From positions 1 to 12,041 of the IMG/VR virus record IMGVR_UViG_3300045988_161355: 12,041 nt of DNA. The stretch is one strand, 5' to 3'. The notes beneath the pieces are model-generated. The model was not told where the DNA came from. It was given only the letters and a program-made list of their open reading frames with translations, and searched no databases. Positions 1 through 12,041 of the stretch are shown piece by piece (the stretch's first letter is position 1; every line of letters begins with the position of its first letter). This DNA is from a virus. Made by a program: the position numbers and the translations under genes.

Positions 1-170
1 ATCCCCCACGCTCCCTTACCTCACAACCTAATTTAAATCCAGAGATTCCAACCTTTGGCGCTCATACCTAAGGCGTGCCACCTAGTTATCAAAACAAGAC
101 TATCACACTAACTTTATAACACATAGTTATCATTAACACTTGACAACGTTAATAAAAAAGGCTAGACTAA
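1..170. repeat. Left inverted terminal repeat (ITR-L), 170 bp
   Basis: Bases 1-170 are the exact reverse complement of 11872-12041; I checked all seventeen 10-mers with no mismatch. Identity breaks at 171 (t) versus the complement of 11871 (a). Terminal sequence is 5'-ATCCCCCACGCTCCC. Confidence 0.95.
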
Positions 171-179
171 TGTCTAACC
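151..179 (-). terminator. Rho-independent terminator ending the minus-strand gene array, straddling the ITR boundary
   Basis: Minus-strand RNA reads GGUUAGAC-AUUA-GUCUAGCC (8-bp stem with one G.U pair, 4-nt loop) followed by UUUUUUAUU. It lies 14 nt downstream of the ATPase TAA (193-195). The 5' arm lies outside the ITR and the 3' arm plus U-run lie inside it. Confidence 0.6.
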
Positions 180-192
180 TAGTTATTTAATA

Positions 193-1266
193 TTAAAGAT
201 TATAACACCATTCAAGATATGCGTTGACCAAGTCGCCTACTTCATTACTTTGATAAAAGACTTTATCATCTTTAAATAGACTTTGTATTAATTTAGCATA
301 TGGTTGCGTTCCTGTAAGTATATTTCTATGATGAAGAGGATTGACGCTAAATTCCTGTTGATAAATTATTGAGGTATCTCTCTTAGTCATTTCACGTGTA
401 AAAGGCATGATGAAGATAAATAGAGTTTTATCAACATTGACAATGTCGGCTTTTAACGTTTCGCCGTCAAAACATATGAAAAAGTTCATTATGATGTTTT
501 TAGGCACGTACTTAATAGGTAGTTTAGGATAAATAGCTATTTGCCAATAGCCTTGAGTTATCATTTTTAGTTTAGGATTGTTAAAACCAAAATAAGTGGA
601 TTTTGACAGTTTACTTTCATTGTCATCACGTTTACGACAATATTCAAGGGCAACCGTTGTTAAACTTTCGCCGTAAGTATAAAAATCAATAGTGCCTTGT
701 TTTTGTTTCTTAACATTAGTCAACCCCATTTCCTGGAAGTATGGACAATATTTAGAAATTGTATTACCTAACATAAAAATTTTTACACCAAGTCTATCAC
801 GTATAATAGTTGACAGTAAGTTTTCAAACTCAACGAATTCATCCTCTAAATAACTACCACTTGTTATTACTTCATCATAAATTATTGTTTGTACGTTAGG
901 GTATTCATAGCTTTTATAATTAAGTTCATCTTGAACGTTGAATCTATGACCGACAAGGGCTTCACGATGTACTATTCCTTTATCATCAACATTACACAAC
1001 CAAAAGTCATTTTGATAGTAATTCATAATACTATATTCCCCCTTAGTCCATTCTTTAATAGGTTTATTGCATAGCTTTTGAATGTCTTGAGCTTTCATTT
1101 CATCGCGTCGTCTTCTTATATATGCAAATCTATTACCGTTTTTAATAAACTCTTTTACGGCATATTCTAGACATGCAAACGTCTTACCATTCGAACGCTC
1201 GCCAATTATAAAGTTATATACAGCGTTAAGCTGTAATATTTTAGTTAATTTATAATATTTTTTCAT
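193..1266 (-). CDS. DNA encapsidation (packaging) ATPase, phi29 gp16-like
   Basis: 357 aa. The N-terminus NFIIGERSNGKTF...FAYIRRRRDEMK parallels the phi29 gp16 N-terminal Walker A region (FVIGARGIGKS...FIYVRRYK, from memory). Walker A is GERSNGKT and Walker B is TIIYDEV. The ATG at 1264-1266 overlaps the pol stop as TAATG. An AAAGGAGG SD lies upstream. Confidence 0.85.
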   Translation of the reverse strand: MKKYYKLTKILQLNAVYNFIIGERSNGKTFACLEYAVKEFIKNGNRFAYIRRRRDEMKAQDIQKLCNKPIKEWTKGEYSIMNYYQNDFWLCNVDDKGIVHREALVGHRFNVQDELNYKSYEYPNVQTIIYDEVITSGSYLEDEFVEFENLLSTIIRDRLGVKIFMLGNTISKYCPYFQEMGLTNVKKQKQGTIDFYTYGESLTTVALEYCRKRDDNESKLSKSTYFGFNNPKLKMITQGYWQIAIYPKLPIKYVPKNIIMNFFICFDGETLKADIVNVDKTLFIFIMPFTREMTKRDTSIIYQQEFSVNPLHHRNILTGTQPYAKLIQSLFKDDKVFYQSNEVGDLVNAYLEWCYNL

Positions 1267-10732: not shown

Positions 10733-11670
10733 TTTTTAATATCCTCCTTAACTTCTTCTTGTTCCACCTTATGAGCTTCAACAACTTGTTCAAAAGTTGT
10801 TTTCCACATAGGTGATAAATCAACAATAATGTTTAAATTATGGATTTCATTAACTTTTTTAAATCCTTCTTTTAGATTATTTAACATATCTTGAATGAAA
10901 GGAATCAATGCTTGTTCATTAAGTCCGCTTTCACTTTCGTTTATGCTTTCACGCTTCATATTGTAGTTAGCATTAACACCTATTTCATTCCATAAACTAG
11001 CAACACAATATTGTTTCAACTCAATTAAATCTTTTAAATTATTAACTCTAACCGGTTGTTGAACGTCTTTTAATCCCTCTTGTCCTTGTAAAAAAGCGTT
11101 TGAAACTATTGCACTTGGTTGAATTCCATCTTCAACAGCTTTATTATAGTTATCAAAAGCATCTTTCACACTTTGAGTATCAGCAACAAAAGTATTTACT
11201 TTACGTGTATTTATTACACCTAATCTTAGCGATAAATCACATTCAGTCATTATAGTGGCATATTTATTAATAAGAGGGTATAATCCCATTAAGTAAGTAT
11301 CATTCCTTATTAATACAGCGTCCTTATCATCTTGAATAGTTAAGGTCTTATCATAATTTAAATAAGGGTTGGAAATTATTACTTGAGTTGGTTCATAGTA
11401 TGTGTTATACACTCCTCCTAGCCCACCTGTAAAAGCATATAGTTTTCCCTTAATTTTTTCATTAGGCACTACACACCAACCATATGAAAATAGTAAACGT
11501 AATATATTATGTTTAGGTATGCTTTCAGGCAATCCCTCAATATCAAAAATTGAAAAACACTTATCAAAAAAGTAAAGTACATAGCTATCAAATAGACTTT
11601 CTTTATTGAAACCTCCTTGAGGTATGTTTAACAACCATTCTTGACGCTTATTTACTTGTGTTTTTGACAT
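10729..11670 (-). CDS. Portal / head-tail connector protein, phi29 gp10-like (313 aa from the ATG at 11670; the track starts at the TTG at 11679)
   Basis: Blocks FDIEGLPESIP...FSYGWCVVPNE...KLYAFTGGLGGVYNTYYEPTQVI parallel phi29 gp10 FEWENLPPTINP...FGYVGFYKDP...[21 protein letters not shown] (from memory). It is about 310 aa, like gp10. The TGA stop overlaps the next start (ATGA). Confidence 0.75.
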   Translation of the reverse strand: MSKTQVNKRQEWLLNIPQGGFNKESLFDSYVLYFFDKCFSIFDIEGLPESIPKHNILRLLFSYGWCVVPNEKIKGKLYAFTGGLGGVYNTYYEPTQVIISNPYLNYDKTLTIQDDKDAVLIRNDTYLMGLYPLINKYATIMTECDLSLRLGVINTRKVNTFVADTQSVKDAFDNYNKAVEDGIQPSAIVSNAFLQGQEGLKDVQQPVRVNNLKDLIELKQYCVASLWNEIGVNANYNMKRESINESESGLNEQALIPFIQDMLNNLKEGFKKVNEIHNLNIIVDLSPMWKTTFEQVVEAHKVEQEEVKEDIKK

Positions 11671-11854
11671 TGATATCAACTCCTAACTTATCACTTAATT
11701 TAATTAATGCTTGTGTATTATTTTCAATGGTTGCCGTAAGTTTACTAATCTCTTCTTTGTGCTGTTCATTTAATTTATAAATTACGTAAACTAGAATTAA
11801 ACACATAGCACAAGGAAACCCAACCATACTTATTAATTGTGTGACTTTGTCCAT
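11648..11854 (-). CDS. Small membrane protein (68 aa from the ATG at 11854): N-terminal TM helix plus C-terminal coiled-coil-like segment
   Basis: MDKVTQLISMVGFPCAMCLILVYVIYKL is followed by a charged heptad-like tail. AGGAGGTG + 5-6 nt precedes the ATG at 11852-11854. The ORF-track 84-aa version starts at a TTG that is in fact the TTG of the -35 hexamer inside the ITR. It is the first gene after the ITR promoter and overlaps the portal start by 23 nt. Confidence 0.5.
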   Translation of the reverse strand: MDKVTQLISMVGFPCAMCLILVYVIYKLNEQHKEEISKLTATIENNTQALIKLSDKLGVDINVKNTSK

Positions 11855-11871
11855 AATAACACCTCCTATAT

Positions 11872-12041
11872 TTAGTCTAGCCTTTTTTATTAACGTTGTC
11901 AAGTGTTAATGATAACTATGTGTTATAAAGTTAGTGTGATAGTCTTGTTTTGATAACTAGGTGGCACGCCTTAGGTATGAGCGCCAAAGGTTGGAATCTC
12001 TGGATTTAAATTAGGTTGTGAGGTAAGGGAGCGTGGGGGAT
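11872..12041. repeat. Right inverted terminal repeat (ITR-R), 170 bp
   Basis: Exact reverse complement of 1-170. It ends the window, consistent with the window being a whole linear protein-primed genome. Confidence 0.95.
11874..11902 (-). promoter_or_regulatory. Consensus sigma70-type promoter at the inner edge of the right ITR, reading inward (TTGACA - 17 bp - TAGACT)
   Basis: Minus-strand sequence reads cacTTGACAacgttaataaaaaaggcTAGACTaaatatAGGAGGtgttattATG. The -35 hexamer is perfect and the spacer is 17 bp. The predicted TSS falls a few nt before the SD of the first gene. An identical copy exists at 140-168 on the plus strand of the left ITR. Confidence 0.4.

Follow-up and report, generated by a model that had tools for sequence, protein, structure and literature searches.

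The window, by which we mean the whole 12,041-nt stretch of DNA that was analysed, very probably represents almost all of the linear dsDNA genome of a miniature phi29-like podophage of the human gut, from a lineage near to but outside the Astrithrvirus group. It is known from assemblies alone; its physical ends and a 5'-linked protein are predicted. An earlier sequence-only reading had described it as an entire protein-primed, phi29-like podophage genome; profile and structure tests agreed with its identification of the polymerase, the packaging ATPase, the portal, the capsid protein and the tail knob, and thereby with the assignment to phi29-like podophages.

The inverted terminal repeat and the genome ends

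A repeat search and a base-by-base comparison across the whole window gave two arms of 170 nt that are 100% complementary (Table 1). As the runner-up inverted repeat was merely 35 nt long at 74%, this repeat lies far beyond chance. Direct comparison also confirmed the earlier observation that identity stops abruptly at 171/11871: beyond 171 the left arm enters the 3' flank of the ATPase gene, and beyond 11871 the right arm enters the ribosome-binding site and the start of the first gene.

The inverted terminal repeat (ITR) is biological and not an assembler artefact, because a 92%-identical contig (L005) spans precisely 171..11871, the unique region, and lacks both ITR copies, because another contig (L004) has the variant GTGAAT (GTTAAT in the window) in both of its copies and because two further relatives (L175 and L176) likewise have ITRs. 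It seems extremely improbable that the repeat arose in assembly and that the real molecule is circular, longer or a prophage in a bacterial chromosome. Assembled contigs are the only data here and assemblers can make terminal inverted duplications, but a circular genome would leave direct repeats at its ends instead of inverted ones, relatives sampled elsewhere carry ITR copies of their own that co-vary, and none of the >100 related contigs, drawn from many samples, exceeds ~12.2 kb or carries bacterial flanks. Moreover, Pfam and PHROG searches of the window proteins revealed no integrase, the replication machinery is protein-primed and as such requires linear ends, and Phanie, a relative in culture, shows the same architecture.

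The genome had been called entire. Near-complete and linear is what held, since a few terminal bases are probably missing. Outside the first base of the window, the relative L006 has 8 extra nt (CACAGTGA) and L176 has 3 (GGA), and both extensions agree on the adjacent bases GA; in L175, a perfect 127-bp 'ITR' is a mere k=127 truncation of a longer repeat. Given these extra outer bases and truncated arms, 170 bp would be a lower bound for the ITR, and the window probably ends ~3–8 nt short at each tip. The contig could instead be complete to its last base, with ATCCCCC as the true end on both sides and the extra bases of L006 and L176 as artefacts or strain differences, a reading that we hold possible but somewhat doubtful. 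L004, an independent contig of 92% identity, breaks off where the window does, to the base, and among contigs of the identical strain (L021) none reaches further. However, de Bruijn assemblies truncate ITR tips symmetrically, as the 127-bp arms of L175 illustrate, so matching window ends are not independent evidence, and the two relatives that extend beyond the window are independent of each other. Sliding-back initiation normally needs a short terminal reiteration. The window tip (ATCCCCC...) has none, whereas the complete relatives and phi29 all have a leader of 5–9 nt ahead of the C-rich tract, and most of these leaders start with a reiteration (AAA, GGG, ATAT, GAGA, GTTAGTTA or CACA). Exact 15-mer scans for the ITR tip in viral and metagenome collections added no new relatives and hit little but chance matches, and exact-protein look-ups of the two terminal genes, in which we sought longer ends, found contigs that stop inside the ITR. 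We favor ends that are short by a few bases.

Gene content and a model of the life cycle

All 16 genes lie on the minus strand (Table 1). The window has a GC content of 29.5%, and GGAGG, a strong Shine-Dalgarno site, is found within ~12 nt of at least 9 of the 16 starts. Genetic code 4, and with it a Mollicute host, would explain the low GC and the missing lysin, but we rejected it: TGA is the stop codon of two genes, and table-11 ORFs without in-frame TGA tile the genome. No tRNAs were found in the window, and no Rfam family, the pRNA included, matched it at E<=1. According to the review (PMC11476376), only phi29 and related Bacillus phages have a pRNA.

Table 1. Features of the window, listed from its first to its last base
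Feature	Position	Strand	Basis or remark
Left ITR	1..170	none	Presumed replication origin; repeat search and base comparison
Mirrored copy of the ITR promoter, TTGACA-17-TAGACT	140-168	plus	Inner end of left ITR
Intrinsic terminator-like hairpin	159..180	minus	AGGTTAGAC-ATTA-GTCTAGCCT then TTTTTT; straddles ITR boundary
DNA packaging ATPase, gp16 type, 357 aa	193..1266	minus	Pfam Podovirus_Gp16 7e-21; phrog_2150 3e-34
Protein-primed family B DNA polymerase (PolB), 744 aa	1266..3500	minus	Pfam, PHROG and PDB matches
Candidate terminal protein (TP), 204 aa	3451..4065	minus	Position upstream of PolB; overlaps PolB start
163-aa protein, acidic C-terminal tail, candidate ssDNA-binding protein (SSB)	4112..4603	minus	Position
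116-aa protein	4684..5034	minus	No Pfam, PHROG or other family match
Four small ORFs (70, 73, 58 and 64 aa)	5130..5963	minus	Last ORF very hydrophobic
Terminator-like hairpin	6093..6116	minus	After knob gene; separates structural block from downstream block
Tail knob, phi29 gp9 type, single unsplit gene, 512 aa	6130..7668	minus	Profile and Foldseek
Terminator-like hairpin	7694..7718	minus	Just downstream of capsid gene
Major capsid protein (MCP), phi29 type, 386 aa	7725..8885	minus	Pfam Phi29_MCP 5.3e-43
239-aa modular protein (g05), candidate receptor-binding/appendage protein	8900..9619	minus	Domain architecture
93-aa paralogue of g05, N-terminal domain only	9612..9893	minus	Repeat D3 and alignment A4
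278-aa protein, candidate lower collar, low-complexity N/T/S-rich center	9896..10732	minus	Position
Head-tail connector (portal), phi29 gp10 type, 313 aa	10729..11670	minus	Pfam Phage_connector 1.5e-8; phrog_2038 9e-28
68-aa single-pass membrane protein, holin candidate	11648..11854	minus	phrog_4898 'holin' 5.3e-8
Right ITR	11872..12041	none	Carries sigma-70-like promoter directly upstream of first gene
Sigma-70-like promoter candidate, TTGACA-17-TAGACT	11902-11874	minus	Right ITR

Promoter-like matches were no more frequent in the window than in shuffled sequence (85 versus 74.6), so the promoter call draws on its position and on its conservation: wherever the contig of a relative reaches across the site (L023, L024, L175 and L176) the hexamers are invariant while the spacer varies. 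The L173 contig is cut within the -35 and stood outside this comparison. At the other end of the genome, the hairpin across the ITR boundary lies 13 nt past the ATPase stop codon, and the left ITR supplies the 3' half of its stem together with the U-tract for the ATPase transcript; among relatives the stem is conserved and the loop varies. The inner edge of the ITR would thus be in compact dual use, with a promoter at one end and half a terminator at the other. Besides the ITRs, the sole intergenic gap of more than 120 nt (5982-6129) holds the hairpin after the knob gene.

The polymerase matched Pfam DNA_pol_B_2 (1.1e-6, 28.2 bits against a cut-off of 25.8) and phrog_1907 (2.3e-61), and its only PDB match was the phi29 polymerase (1XHX, 2.6e-10), as expected from the earlier assignment to protein-primed PolBs. 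It starts at TTG 3500, in agreement with the L021 gene call, in an ORF that is open to 3521. Motifs A (DFSSDYP), B (KFWLNGVYG) and C (YSDTDS) could be aligned, and an insertion lies between motifs B and C, at the TPR2 position. Directly upstream of PolB, ORFs of 197–275 aa occur in 20 of 20 related loci, linked across the clade by a chain of weak homology and a shared N-terminal motif. This conserved position suggests that the 204-aa ORF encodes the TP, as had been proposed. No similarity of its family to phi29 gp3 was detectable (hhalign with a clade-wide profile, probability 0.3%), and the protein had no match in the PDB (phmmer, noise only), Pfam or PHROGs. By its position the 163-aa protein may be an SSB; it had no family match in Pfam or PHROG, and hhalign against phi29 gp5 was negative.

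The ATPase, the connector and the MCP, which the sequence-only reading had recognized as gp16-, gp10- and gp8-like, all scored above the curated Pfam cut-offs, with concordant PHROG matches. Identity with the astrithr and Phanie proteins is 43–45% for the ATPase and 43–50% for the MCP; across the Astrithrvirus type the MCP values are 42–49% in tblastn and up to 50% in blastp. For the knob, the family profile matched phi29 gp9 (PDB 5FB4) at 7.4e-7. AlphaFold with a shallow alignment of 11 sequences gave a pLDDT of 31.5 and this model was discarded; a deep HMMER search with diverse homologues was then used, and the AF2 model had a pLDDT of 74.8. Its best nine Foldseek matches were all knobs of phi29, Andhra or C1 (1.5e-12 to 2.8e-9, TM ~0.5), while the tenth was at 0.1; the gp9-like assignment thus stands. 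Residues ~369–412 form a Gly/Ala-rich hydrophobic loop. In a local iterative search, residues 1–130 mapped to astrithr gp09 and Phanie gp9, and residues 210–500 to the C-terminal part of astrithr and Phanie gp10.

The remaining proteins of the structural block are candidates. Seventeen loci have a homologue of the 278-aa protein, and in every one of them it lies between the genes for the connector and the capsid, mostly directly after the connector. By this position the protein could be the lower collar; its profile had no PDB or Pfam match, and hhalign against phi29 gp11 was negative. The 239-aa protein combines a conserved N-terminal domain of ~85 aa with an exchangeable C-terminal cassette, and the profile of the 93/239-aa family found no match in PDB or Pfam. 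When the 278-aa and 93/239-aa profiles were compared with phi29 gp11, gp8.5, gp12, gp13, gp15 and gp7, nothing was found. The holin candidate is conserved across the clade: 13 loci have a homologue, among them astrithr gp05 and Phanie 0050. The four small ORFs form the most variable block among close relatives and are presumably early or accessory in function.

In our model, the genome would replicate from both ends by protein priming, with the ITRs (at least 170 bp) as two identical origins and with the TP candidate priming the PolB encoded just downstream. The sigma-70-type promoter in the right ITR would drive the holin, connector, collar candidate, two fiber-like proteins, capsid and knob, all genes being read in one direction, with terminator-like hairpins behind the capsid and knob genes. 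A second block of small ORFs, SSB candidate, TP candidate, PolB and packaging ATPase would close at the hairpin to which the left ITR contributes one half. The DNA would be packaged through the gp10-type connector by the gp16-type ATPase, without a detectable phi29-type pRNA, and entry would proceed by the gp9-type knob with its hydrophobic loop.

Gut relatives, host and lysis

Uncultivated human-gut contigs of ~12 kb (IMGVR_UViG_3300045988_165396, _155009 and _167400, ENA ERZ1689278 NODE_414, ERZ914680 k127_65619 and many Logan contigs) share 88–94% nucleotide identity with the window over most of the genome, with identical gene order and the same ITR, and they belong to the same lineage or species complex. 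One gut contig is 100% identical over window positions 117-12034, and dozens from human gut metagenomes are ~92% identical, none of them longer than 12.2 kb. They differ mainly in the C-terminal cassette of g05 and in the small-ORF block. The 90% cluster of the MCP has 101 members on contigs of at most 12,154 nt, and searches with the knob and g05 returned only contigs of at most 12,170 nt. In the databases these contigs are unannotated or labeled 'hypothetical protein' and are uncharacterized. As to the environment, one record is named human.gut.metagenome, and the IMG set 3300045988 is described as human fecal.

A low-GC Gram-positive gut bacterium is the probable host, as suggested by GGAGG near at least 9 of the 16 starts, by the 29.5% GC, by the endolysin of the sister genome L008 (MCP 54%), which has a CW_7 wall-binding repeat, and by an M23 peptidase encoded in L007. 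This guess is weak because the closest cultured relatives infect Gram-negative bacteria. A contig scan for a host-linked copy yielded a single MAG contig, a distant one (Candidatus Enterousia bin, PolB 36%), which is uninformative on the host.

Pfam, PHROG and further profile searches recognized no endolysin or tail lysin among the window proteins, an odd absence for a phage whose host has a cell wall. We think it unlikely that the lineage has dispensed with a conventional muralytic enzyme, using small membrane protein(s) alone or an unrecognized lysin in an orphan protein, or that it relies on a helper for lysis or entry as Phanie does; if true, it would be among the most stripped-down tailed dsDNA phages known. 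Less likely still is outright helper dependence, in which the phage would be a satellite like its relative Acinetobacter phage Phanie, with virions that cannot infect alone and have to bind the tail of another, unrelated phage in the same host. Lysis functions borrowed from a helper could explain the missing lysin, and Phanie is among the closest isolates (MCP 49–50%, ATPase 45%, ITR of 171 versus 170 bp). According to the review (PMC11476376), Phanie relies on a helper myophage and its relatives may do likewise. However, the features that the review connects with the Phanie lifestyle, a split knob and a large gp10 with extra Ig-like domains, are missing from the window, whose knob is compact, unsplit and phi29-like, and the exchangeable C-terminal cassette of its two fiber-like proteins suggests receptor binding of its own.

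Comparison with known phages

The nearest isolates are miniature podophages of the Astrithrvirus type ('cluster 23' of Evseev et al. 2024, PMC11476376), with genomes of 10.4–11.9 kb and 41–50% amino acid identity. We compared the window with Salmonella phages astrithr, Astrid and assan, Acinetobacter phage Aci01-2-Phanie, Pectobacterium phage DU_PP_III, Enterobacter phage Entb_47 and Vibrio phage K58 g2. Protein searches thus placed these phages closer than the families that the sequence-only reading had proposed for comparison. Like the window, they are linear with ITRs (Phanie, perfect 171-bp ITR in 11,885 bp), have an ORF of ~200 aa directly upstream of PolB and show no pRNA match. Identities to the window are 41–43% for PolB, 43–45% for the ATPase, 35–36% for the connector, 42–50% for the MCP and 26–32% for the small holin-like protein. 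Gene order is effectively a circular permutation: in the window one strand carries the structural genes first and Pol-ATPase last, whereas astrithr and Phanie have TP-Pol-ATPase, the structural genes and then two to four small reverse-strand genes. The knob, one 512-aa gene in the window, is in the Astrithrvirus type encoded by two genes, the larger of which has extra Ig-like domains (PMC11476376). In addition, these phages encode a recognizable endolysin and the window does not, their GC content is 37–40% as opposed to 29.5%, and their hosts are Gram-negative.

By ICTV convention a genus corresponds to ~70% nucleotide-level genome similarity. The whole window, searched by megablast against 50,697 phage records, gave no match, and thus no nucleotide-level similarity to the Astrithrvirus type; together with protein identities of only 26–50%, the different gene order and the unsplit knob, this places the window outside the genus Astrithrvirus. 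The lineage appears to be related to, but distinct from, the Astrithrvirus group. Likewise, the pRNA gene of Salasmaviridae gave no Rfam match at E<=1. Guelinviridae-like phages of Gram-positive anaerobes (Amedibacillus phages AD70P2 and AD70P3 and Clostridium phage HM2) resemble the window in size (~12 kb), low GC (26.7%), an ITR (55 bp) and homologous PolB, MCP, connector, ATPase, unsplit knob and collar-like protein. By protein identity, which is not a formal ICTV criterion, they are farther from it than the Astrithrvirus type (PolB 32%, MCP 27%, connector 22%), and their gene order differs.

With phi29 the window shares a protein-primed PolB, the gp16 ATPase, the gp10 connector, the gp8-type MCP, an unsplit gp9-type knob with a hydrophobic loop and linear DNA with ITRs and a C-rich tract close to the terminus. 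Phi29 differs in its genome of 19.3 kb with a 6-bp ITR (12,041 nt and 170 nt in the window), in its divergent early and late transcription, where the window is one-directional, and in its pRNA; its gp12 appendages, gp13 and gp15 lysins and gp8.5 head fiber have no detectable homologue in the window. Identity at the sequence level is very low: the window PolB is 22.7% identical to the polymerase of Bacillus phage vB_Bpu_PumA2.

The combination of a long ITR with a very small genome had been thought uncommon, yet it is the norm in the window's own clade: Phanie has it, and metagenomic relatives combine ITRs of 202, 283, 150 and 96 bp with genomes of 12.3–13.2 kb. Genomes of 11–14 kb have already been described for the group (2024 review, PMC11476376). 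The window is new but ordinary within this group, where long ITRs are common; the combination is already documented, and current understanding stays unchanged. Among the smallest tailed phages known are the miniature phi29-like ones, and with the window they gain a human-gut lineage that is well delimited and seems widespread. Genomes of 12 kb and 16 genes lend themselves as minimal chassis to synthetic phage work and to studies of protein-primed replication. From the isolates it departs in lacking a recognizable endolysin, in its gene order and fused knob gene and in its 29.5% GC with strong Shine-Dalgarno sites. Whole gene blocks change places within the clade, and the knob gene is split in some members and fused in others, but the six or seven core proteins stay the same.

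Terminal repeats, gene content and control signals

We compared the two ends of the window by repeat search and base by base, and positions 1-170 and 11872-12041 proved to be exact reverse complements (170 nt, 100% identity); the second-best inverted repeat in the window measures 35 nt at 74%. The repeat identity stops abruptly, in agreement with the sequence-only reading: the right arm is bordered on its inner side by ATATAGGAGGTGTTATT-ATG, which comprises the ribosome-binding site and the start codon of the first gene, and the left arm by sequence that flanks the last gene on its 3' side. 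The GC content is 29.5% throughout, the GC skew is uniformly negative and all ORFs of plausible size lie on the minus strand, tiling from 11854 down to 193, with GGAGG just upstream of at least 9 of the 16 starts. As TGA is used twice as a stop codon and never occurs in frame inside the tiling ORFs, the standard bacterial code applies. Neither pRNA nor any other Rfam family was found in the window, and tRNAs were likewise not found there.

The protein-primed PolB, gp16-like ATPase, gp10-like portal and gp8-like MCP that had been proposed earlier were all recovered by Pfam/PHROG matches, and PolB also by PDB. The sole PDB-sequence match of PolB is the phi29 DNA polymerase (1XHX/2PYJ, E=2.6e-10), and the two proteins align over motif A (DFSSDYP in the window, DVNSLYP in phi29), motif B (KFWLNGVYG, KLMLNSLYG) and motif C (YSDTDS, YCDTDS), as well as over an insertion at the TPR2 position and the KxY region, which supports a place of PolB in the protein-primed class. 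In the Exo II region (window 2960-2990, HNLAYEFQW, read by eye) Y-E replaces the F-D of phi29's N-L-K-F-D. Together with the linear ITR layout, this gene content bears out the proposed phi29-like phage genome of ~12 kb, presumably protein-primed.

Predicted features of the window
Feature	Position	Strand	Evidence
Terminator-like hairpin, 13 nt after the ATPase stop codon	180-159	-	hairpin search
Packaging ATPase	193-1266	-	Pfam Podovirus_Gp16 7e-21; phrog_2150 3e-34
PolB	1266-3500	-	Pfam DNA_pol_B_2 1.1e-6; phrog_1907 2.3e-61
Candidate TP, 204 aa	3451-4065	-	conserved position directly upstream of PolB
Terminator-like hairpin after the knob gene	6116-6093	-	hairpin search
Tail knob, 512 aa, single gene	6130-7668	-	profile, iterative search and structure model
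Terminator-like hairpin after the capsid gene	7718-7694	-	hairpin search
MCP	7725-8885	-	Phi29_MCP 5.3e-43
239-aa protein	8900-9619	-	N-terminal domain common with 93-aa protein, plus C-terminal cassette
93-aa protein	9612-9893	-	N-terminal domain common with adjacent 239-aa protein
278-aa protein	9896-10732	-	homologues in 17 loci, between connector and capsid genes
Connector	10729-11670	-	Phage_connector 1.5e-8; phrog_2038 9e-28
68-aa membrane protein	11648-11854	-	PHROG holin family phrog_4898, 5.3e-8

The inner edge of the ITR carries TTGACA-17 nt-TAGACT, at 11874-11902 (minus strand) and mirrored at 140-168. The right-end copy lies 20 nt upstream of the start codon of the first gene, and all relatives with contigs that cover this site keep both hexamers unchanged, with variation in the spacer. 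Promoter-like matches overall were not enriched compared to shuffled sequence, so the putative promoter in the right ITR is called from its position and conservation. Terminator-like hairpins were enriched (10 found versus 3.4 expected), and the coding strand holds three of them, which with the promoter would make up the regulatory layout. In the hairpin behind the ATPase gene, unique sequence (171-180) pairs with the ITR's own GGCTAGAC, and the A-run of the ITR gives the U-tract; in relatives the stem is kept and the loop varies (ATTA, ATTTTA, ACTA), a pattern of conservation and not of covariation. Because this hairpin pairs with ITR bases, the same bases would act in both signals: at the right end as promoter spacer and -10 element, and at the left end, on the other strand, as the 3' stem half and U-tract of a terminator. 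This predicted dual use of the ITR edge is of modest interest. The predicted left-end promoter copy (140-168) would fire antisense into the ATPase gene.

Position of the true genome ends

We asked whether the window ends are the true ends of the genome. The ~92%-identical contig L004 has the same terminal base, and a second such contig, L005, corresponds exactly to 171..11871, both of which speak for true ends. However, immediately outside ATCCCCC there are further bases in two relatives, CACAGTGA in L006 and GGA in L176, and the adjacent bases GA agree. Moreover, genomes with complete ITRs, like phi29 itself, have a leader of 5-9 nt ahead of the C-rich tract (phi29 AAAGTAAG-CCCCCACCC; the sister genome L016 CTAAAGTA-ATCCCCCCCC; Acinetobacter phage Phanie GGGTT-ATCCGCCCCCC), and most of them begin with a short reiteration (AAA, GGG, ATAT, GAGA, GTTAGTTA). 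Sliding-back or jumping-back initiation, as in phi29, PRD1 and adenovirus, requires such terminal reiterations; the CACA of L006 fits the pattern, whereas the AT-CCCCC of the window does not. The perfect symmetry of the arms is also compatible with lost tips: in a de Bruijn graph the two arms collapse onto a single path and would be expected to be cut back equally, as is seen in the relative L175, whose k=127 assembly has perfect arms of 127 nt. We lean towards a true genome ~16 nt longer than the window, with an ITR of ~178 bp. The reading of the window as a unit-length linear genome is unaffected by missing tip bases.

Also on the side of true ends, the partial second ITR copy of L004 carries L004's own variant, and its presence in both copies indicates concerted evolution of the two arms. 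When we compared the tip regions (window 1-20; phi29 1-20; L016 1-25; Phanie 1-20; L006 1-23), a C-rich tract (CCCCCAC...) began 6-10 nt from the tip in phi29, Phanie, L016 and the window lineage, in ITRs that are otherwise unrelated. By this comparison the tract may be a conserved origin element.

Terminal protein candidate, tail knob and variable proteins

The proposal of a candidate TP directly upstream of PolB held with respect to position and not with respect to similarity to phi29 gp3. In 20/20 related loci PolB is immediately preceded by an ORF of 197-275 aa, and BLAST matches that are weak but significant connect these ORFs stepwise, from the window to the sister genomes L013-18 (~1e-4), then to L007, L009 and L010, and on to L011, L012, Salmonella phage astrithr, Phanie and the Amedibacillus phage AD70P2. 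A basic motif close to N-[KR]-[RN]-x-x-[RK]-L-E-K-x-G is common to their N-terminal parts. The window protein has no relatives in Pfam, PHROG, NCBIfam or PDB, a large protein database returned only its close homologues, and the family profile showed no similarity to gp3 (hhalign probability 0.3%). A p3 counterpart has been identified by HMM searches in the Astrithrvirus group (PMC11476376), a link that our profile comparison did not reproduce. In view of the lack of similarity to characterised families and to gp3, we infer the TP from conserved synteny. Upstream of the TP candidate, a 163-aa protein with an acidic tail occupies the position of the phi29 SSB; hhalign comparison gave no sequence evidence for an SSB.

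The gp9-like knob was confirmed by three approaches that agree. Single-sequence searches gave nothing solid (Pfam Caud_tail_N 0.016; noise in PDB), and a shallow-alignment AlphaFold model (pLDDT 31.5) was discarded. In an iterative search of the related loci, residues 1-130 corresponded to a small gene of astrithr and Phanie (the 'knob N-part'), and residues ~210-500 to the C-terminal region of the large gp10 of these phages. A whole-library HMMER search yielded homologues in 2,597 cluster representatives, mostly of 500-550 aa, and a 72-sequence profile matched phi29 gp9 (PDB 5FB4/5FB5/5FEI) at 7.4e-7, colinearly and including the Gly/Ala-rich hydrophobic loop. The deep-alignment model (pLDDT 74.8, pTM 0.61) had tail knobs as its best nine Foldseek PDB matches (phi29 gp9, Andhra, C1 gp12; E 1.5e-12 to 2.8e-9, TM ~0.5), the tenth match being at E=0.1. 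Its only long low-confidence stretch, residues 369-412, aligns with the gp9 loop, a loop that reportedly inserts into membranes. In Phanie, astrithr, L007, L008, L010, L011 and L019 a separate small gene encodes the N-terminal part of the knob, and in L013-L018 the knob (e.g. L013 3299-5797) reaches 811-832 aa, with an N-terminal extension of ~340 aa before the window-homologous region. Thus, across the clade the knob gene has been repeatedly split, fused and extended.

Homologues of the 278-aa protein directly follow the connector in most of the 17 loci, so that by position it is most simply a candidate lower collar; comparisons with PDB, Pfam and phi29-protein profiles gave no support for this identity. 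The 93-aa and 239-aa proteins have in common an N-terminal domain of ~85 aa (MN..GGYRIIDxKGIDL; repeat search and alignment). No other gene of the lineage comes near the 239-aa one in diversity: its products fall into 67 clusters at 90% identity, all from contigs of at most 12,170 nt, with at least two unrelated types of C-terminal cassette and likeness only in the N-terminal third. In contrast, the MCP of the window belongs to one 90% cluster of 101 members. Such a difference is the usual signature of receptor binding, suggesting that the 239-aa protein is a candidate receptor-binding protein. The least conserved part among the 92%-identical strains is a block of four small ORFs downstream of the knob terminator (5130-5963), whose genes are replaced or absent in L004-L006 and in the further relatives L023, L024, L175 and L176. 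The block may serve accessory or anti-defence functions. One of its ORFs (5130-5324, 64 aa) is almost wholly hydrophobic and is uncalled in the ENA record.

Relatives, host and gene order

At the nucleotide level, none of 50,697 deposited phage genomes matched the window. Nearest by protein are Salmonella phages astrithr, Astrid and assan, Acinetobacter phage Phanie, Pectobacterium phage DU_PP_III, Enterobacter phage Entb_47, Vibrio phage K58 g2 and a Shigella phage (10.4-11.9 kb; PolB 37-43%, MCP 42-49% identical), followed by small Guelinviridae-like Amedibacillus and Clostridium phages (~27-32%) and, far behind, the Bacillus phi29-like phages (22.7%). This nearest-relative set has already been described by Evseev et al. 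2024 as phi29-related phages of 11-14 kb, with the knob split over two genes and smaller lower collars; public data contained 2,115 sequences related to phi29, of 7.9-34.6 kb (PMC11476376). The same paper cites Pourcel et al. 2024 for the satellite nature of Phanie, whose virions need to attach to the tail of a helper myophage. The combination of a long ITR and a very small genome had been regarded as uncommon, but the ITR of Phanie (11,885 bp) is perfect over 171 bp, and relatives from IMG/VR with genomes of 12.7, 12.9, 13.0 and 13.2 kb have perfect ITRs of 202, 283, 150 and 96 bp, respectively, so the combination is typical of the clade. The lineage of the window itself is abundant in public sequence data, with more than 60 positive metagenomes: three IMG/VR contigs have MCPs 97-98% identical and ~92% nucleotide identity, one ENA contig is 100% identical across 117-12034 and many Logan and ENA contigs are related to the lineage; none that exceeded 12,170 nt or carried flanking bacterial sequence was found. 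Near-identical but uncharacterised sequences are thus already public, and the window is a member, new at genus level or higher, of a known and recently reviewed kind.

One relative's record is named human.gut.metagenome, and a preprint describes IMG set 3300045988 as human faecal. A Gram-positive gut bacterium as host would fit the 29.5% GC, the near-consensus GGAGG sites, a knob that is unsplit like that of phi29, and the presence of CW_7 in the lysin of the sister genome L008, whose MCP (54%) is closer than that of any Gram-negative phage, although the closest phages in culture have Proteobacteria as hosts. One distant contig, binned in a Candidatus Enterousia MAG, is uninformative for the host of the window.

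No endolysin or tail lysin was detectable in any window ORF by Pfam, PHROG and further profile searches, although the window does encode a holin-family protein. In contrast, an endolysin and an amidase are present in astrithr and Phanie, and lysins are obvious in most sister genomes (L007 5868-7667, Peptidase_M23; L008 7216-7830, ELLD and CW_7; L011 12156-12557, M15; L019 12292-12804, ELLD; L020 11780-12700, NlpC/P60 and LysM). The missing lysin is of modest interest.

Across the wider clade (L001-L020 versus the window; linear genomes of ~12-14 kb) gene order is remarkably plastic: there are at least four gene arrangements, and the Pol-ATPase block occurs at either end and in either orientation. 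Astrithr has the order Pol-ATPase-holin-connector...MCP; the window has the structural genes first and Pol-ATPase last, on a single strand; the Pol-ATPase block is inverted in L007, L009 and L010, and Pol alone in L008 and L013-18. Compared with astrithr, the window seems to have the same gene string circularly permuted, a curious finding given that such a genome does not circularise. The knob is one gene in the window as it is in phi29, and this fused knob, compared to the split one of the nearest cultured relatives, is together with the one-directional permuted gene order of modest interest.
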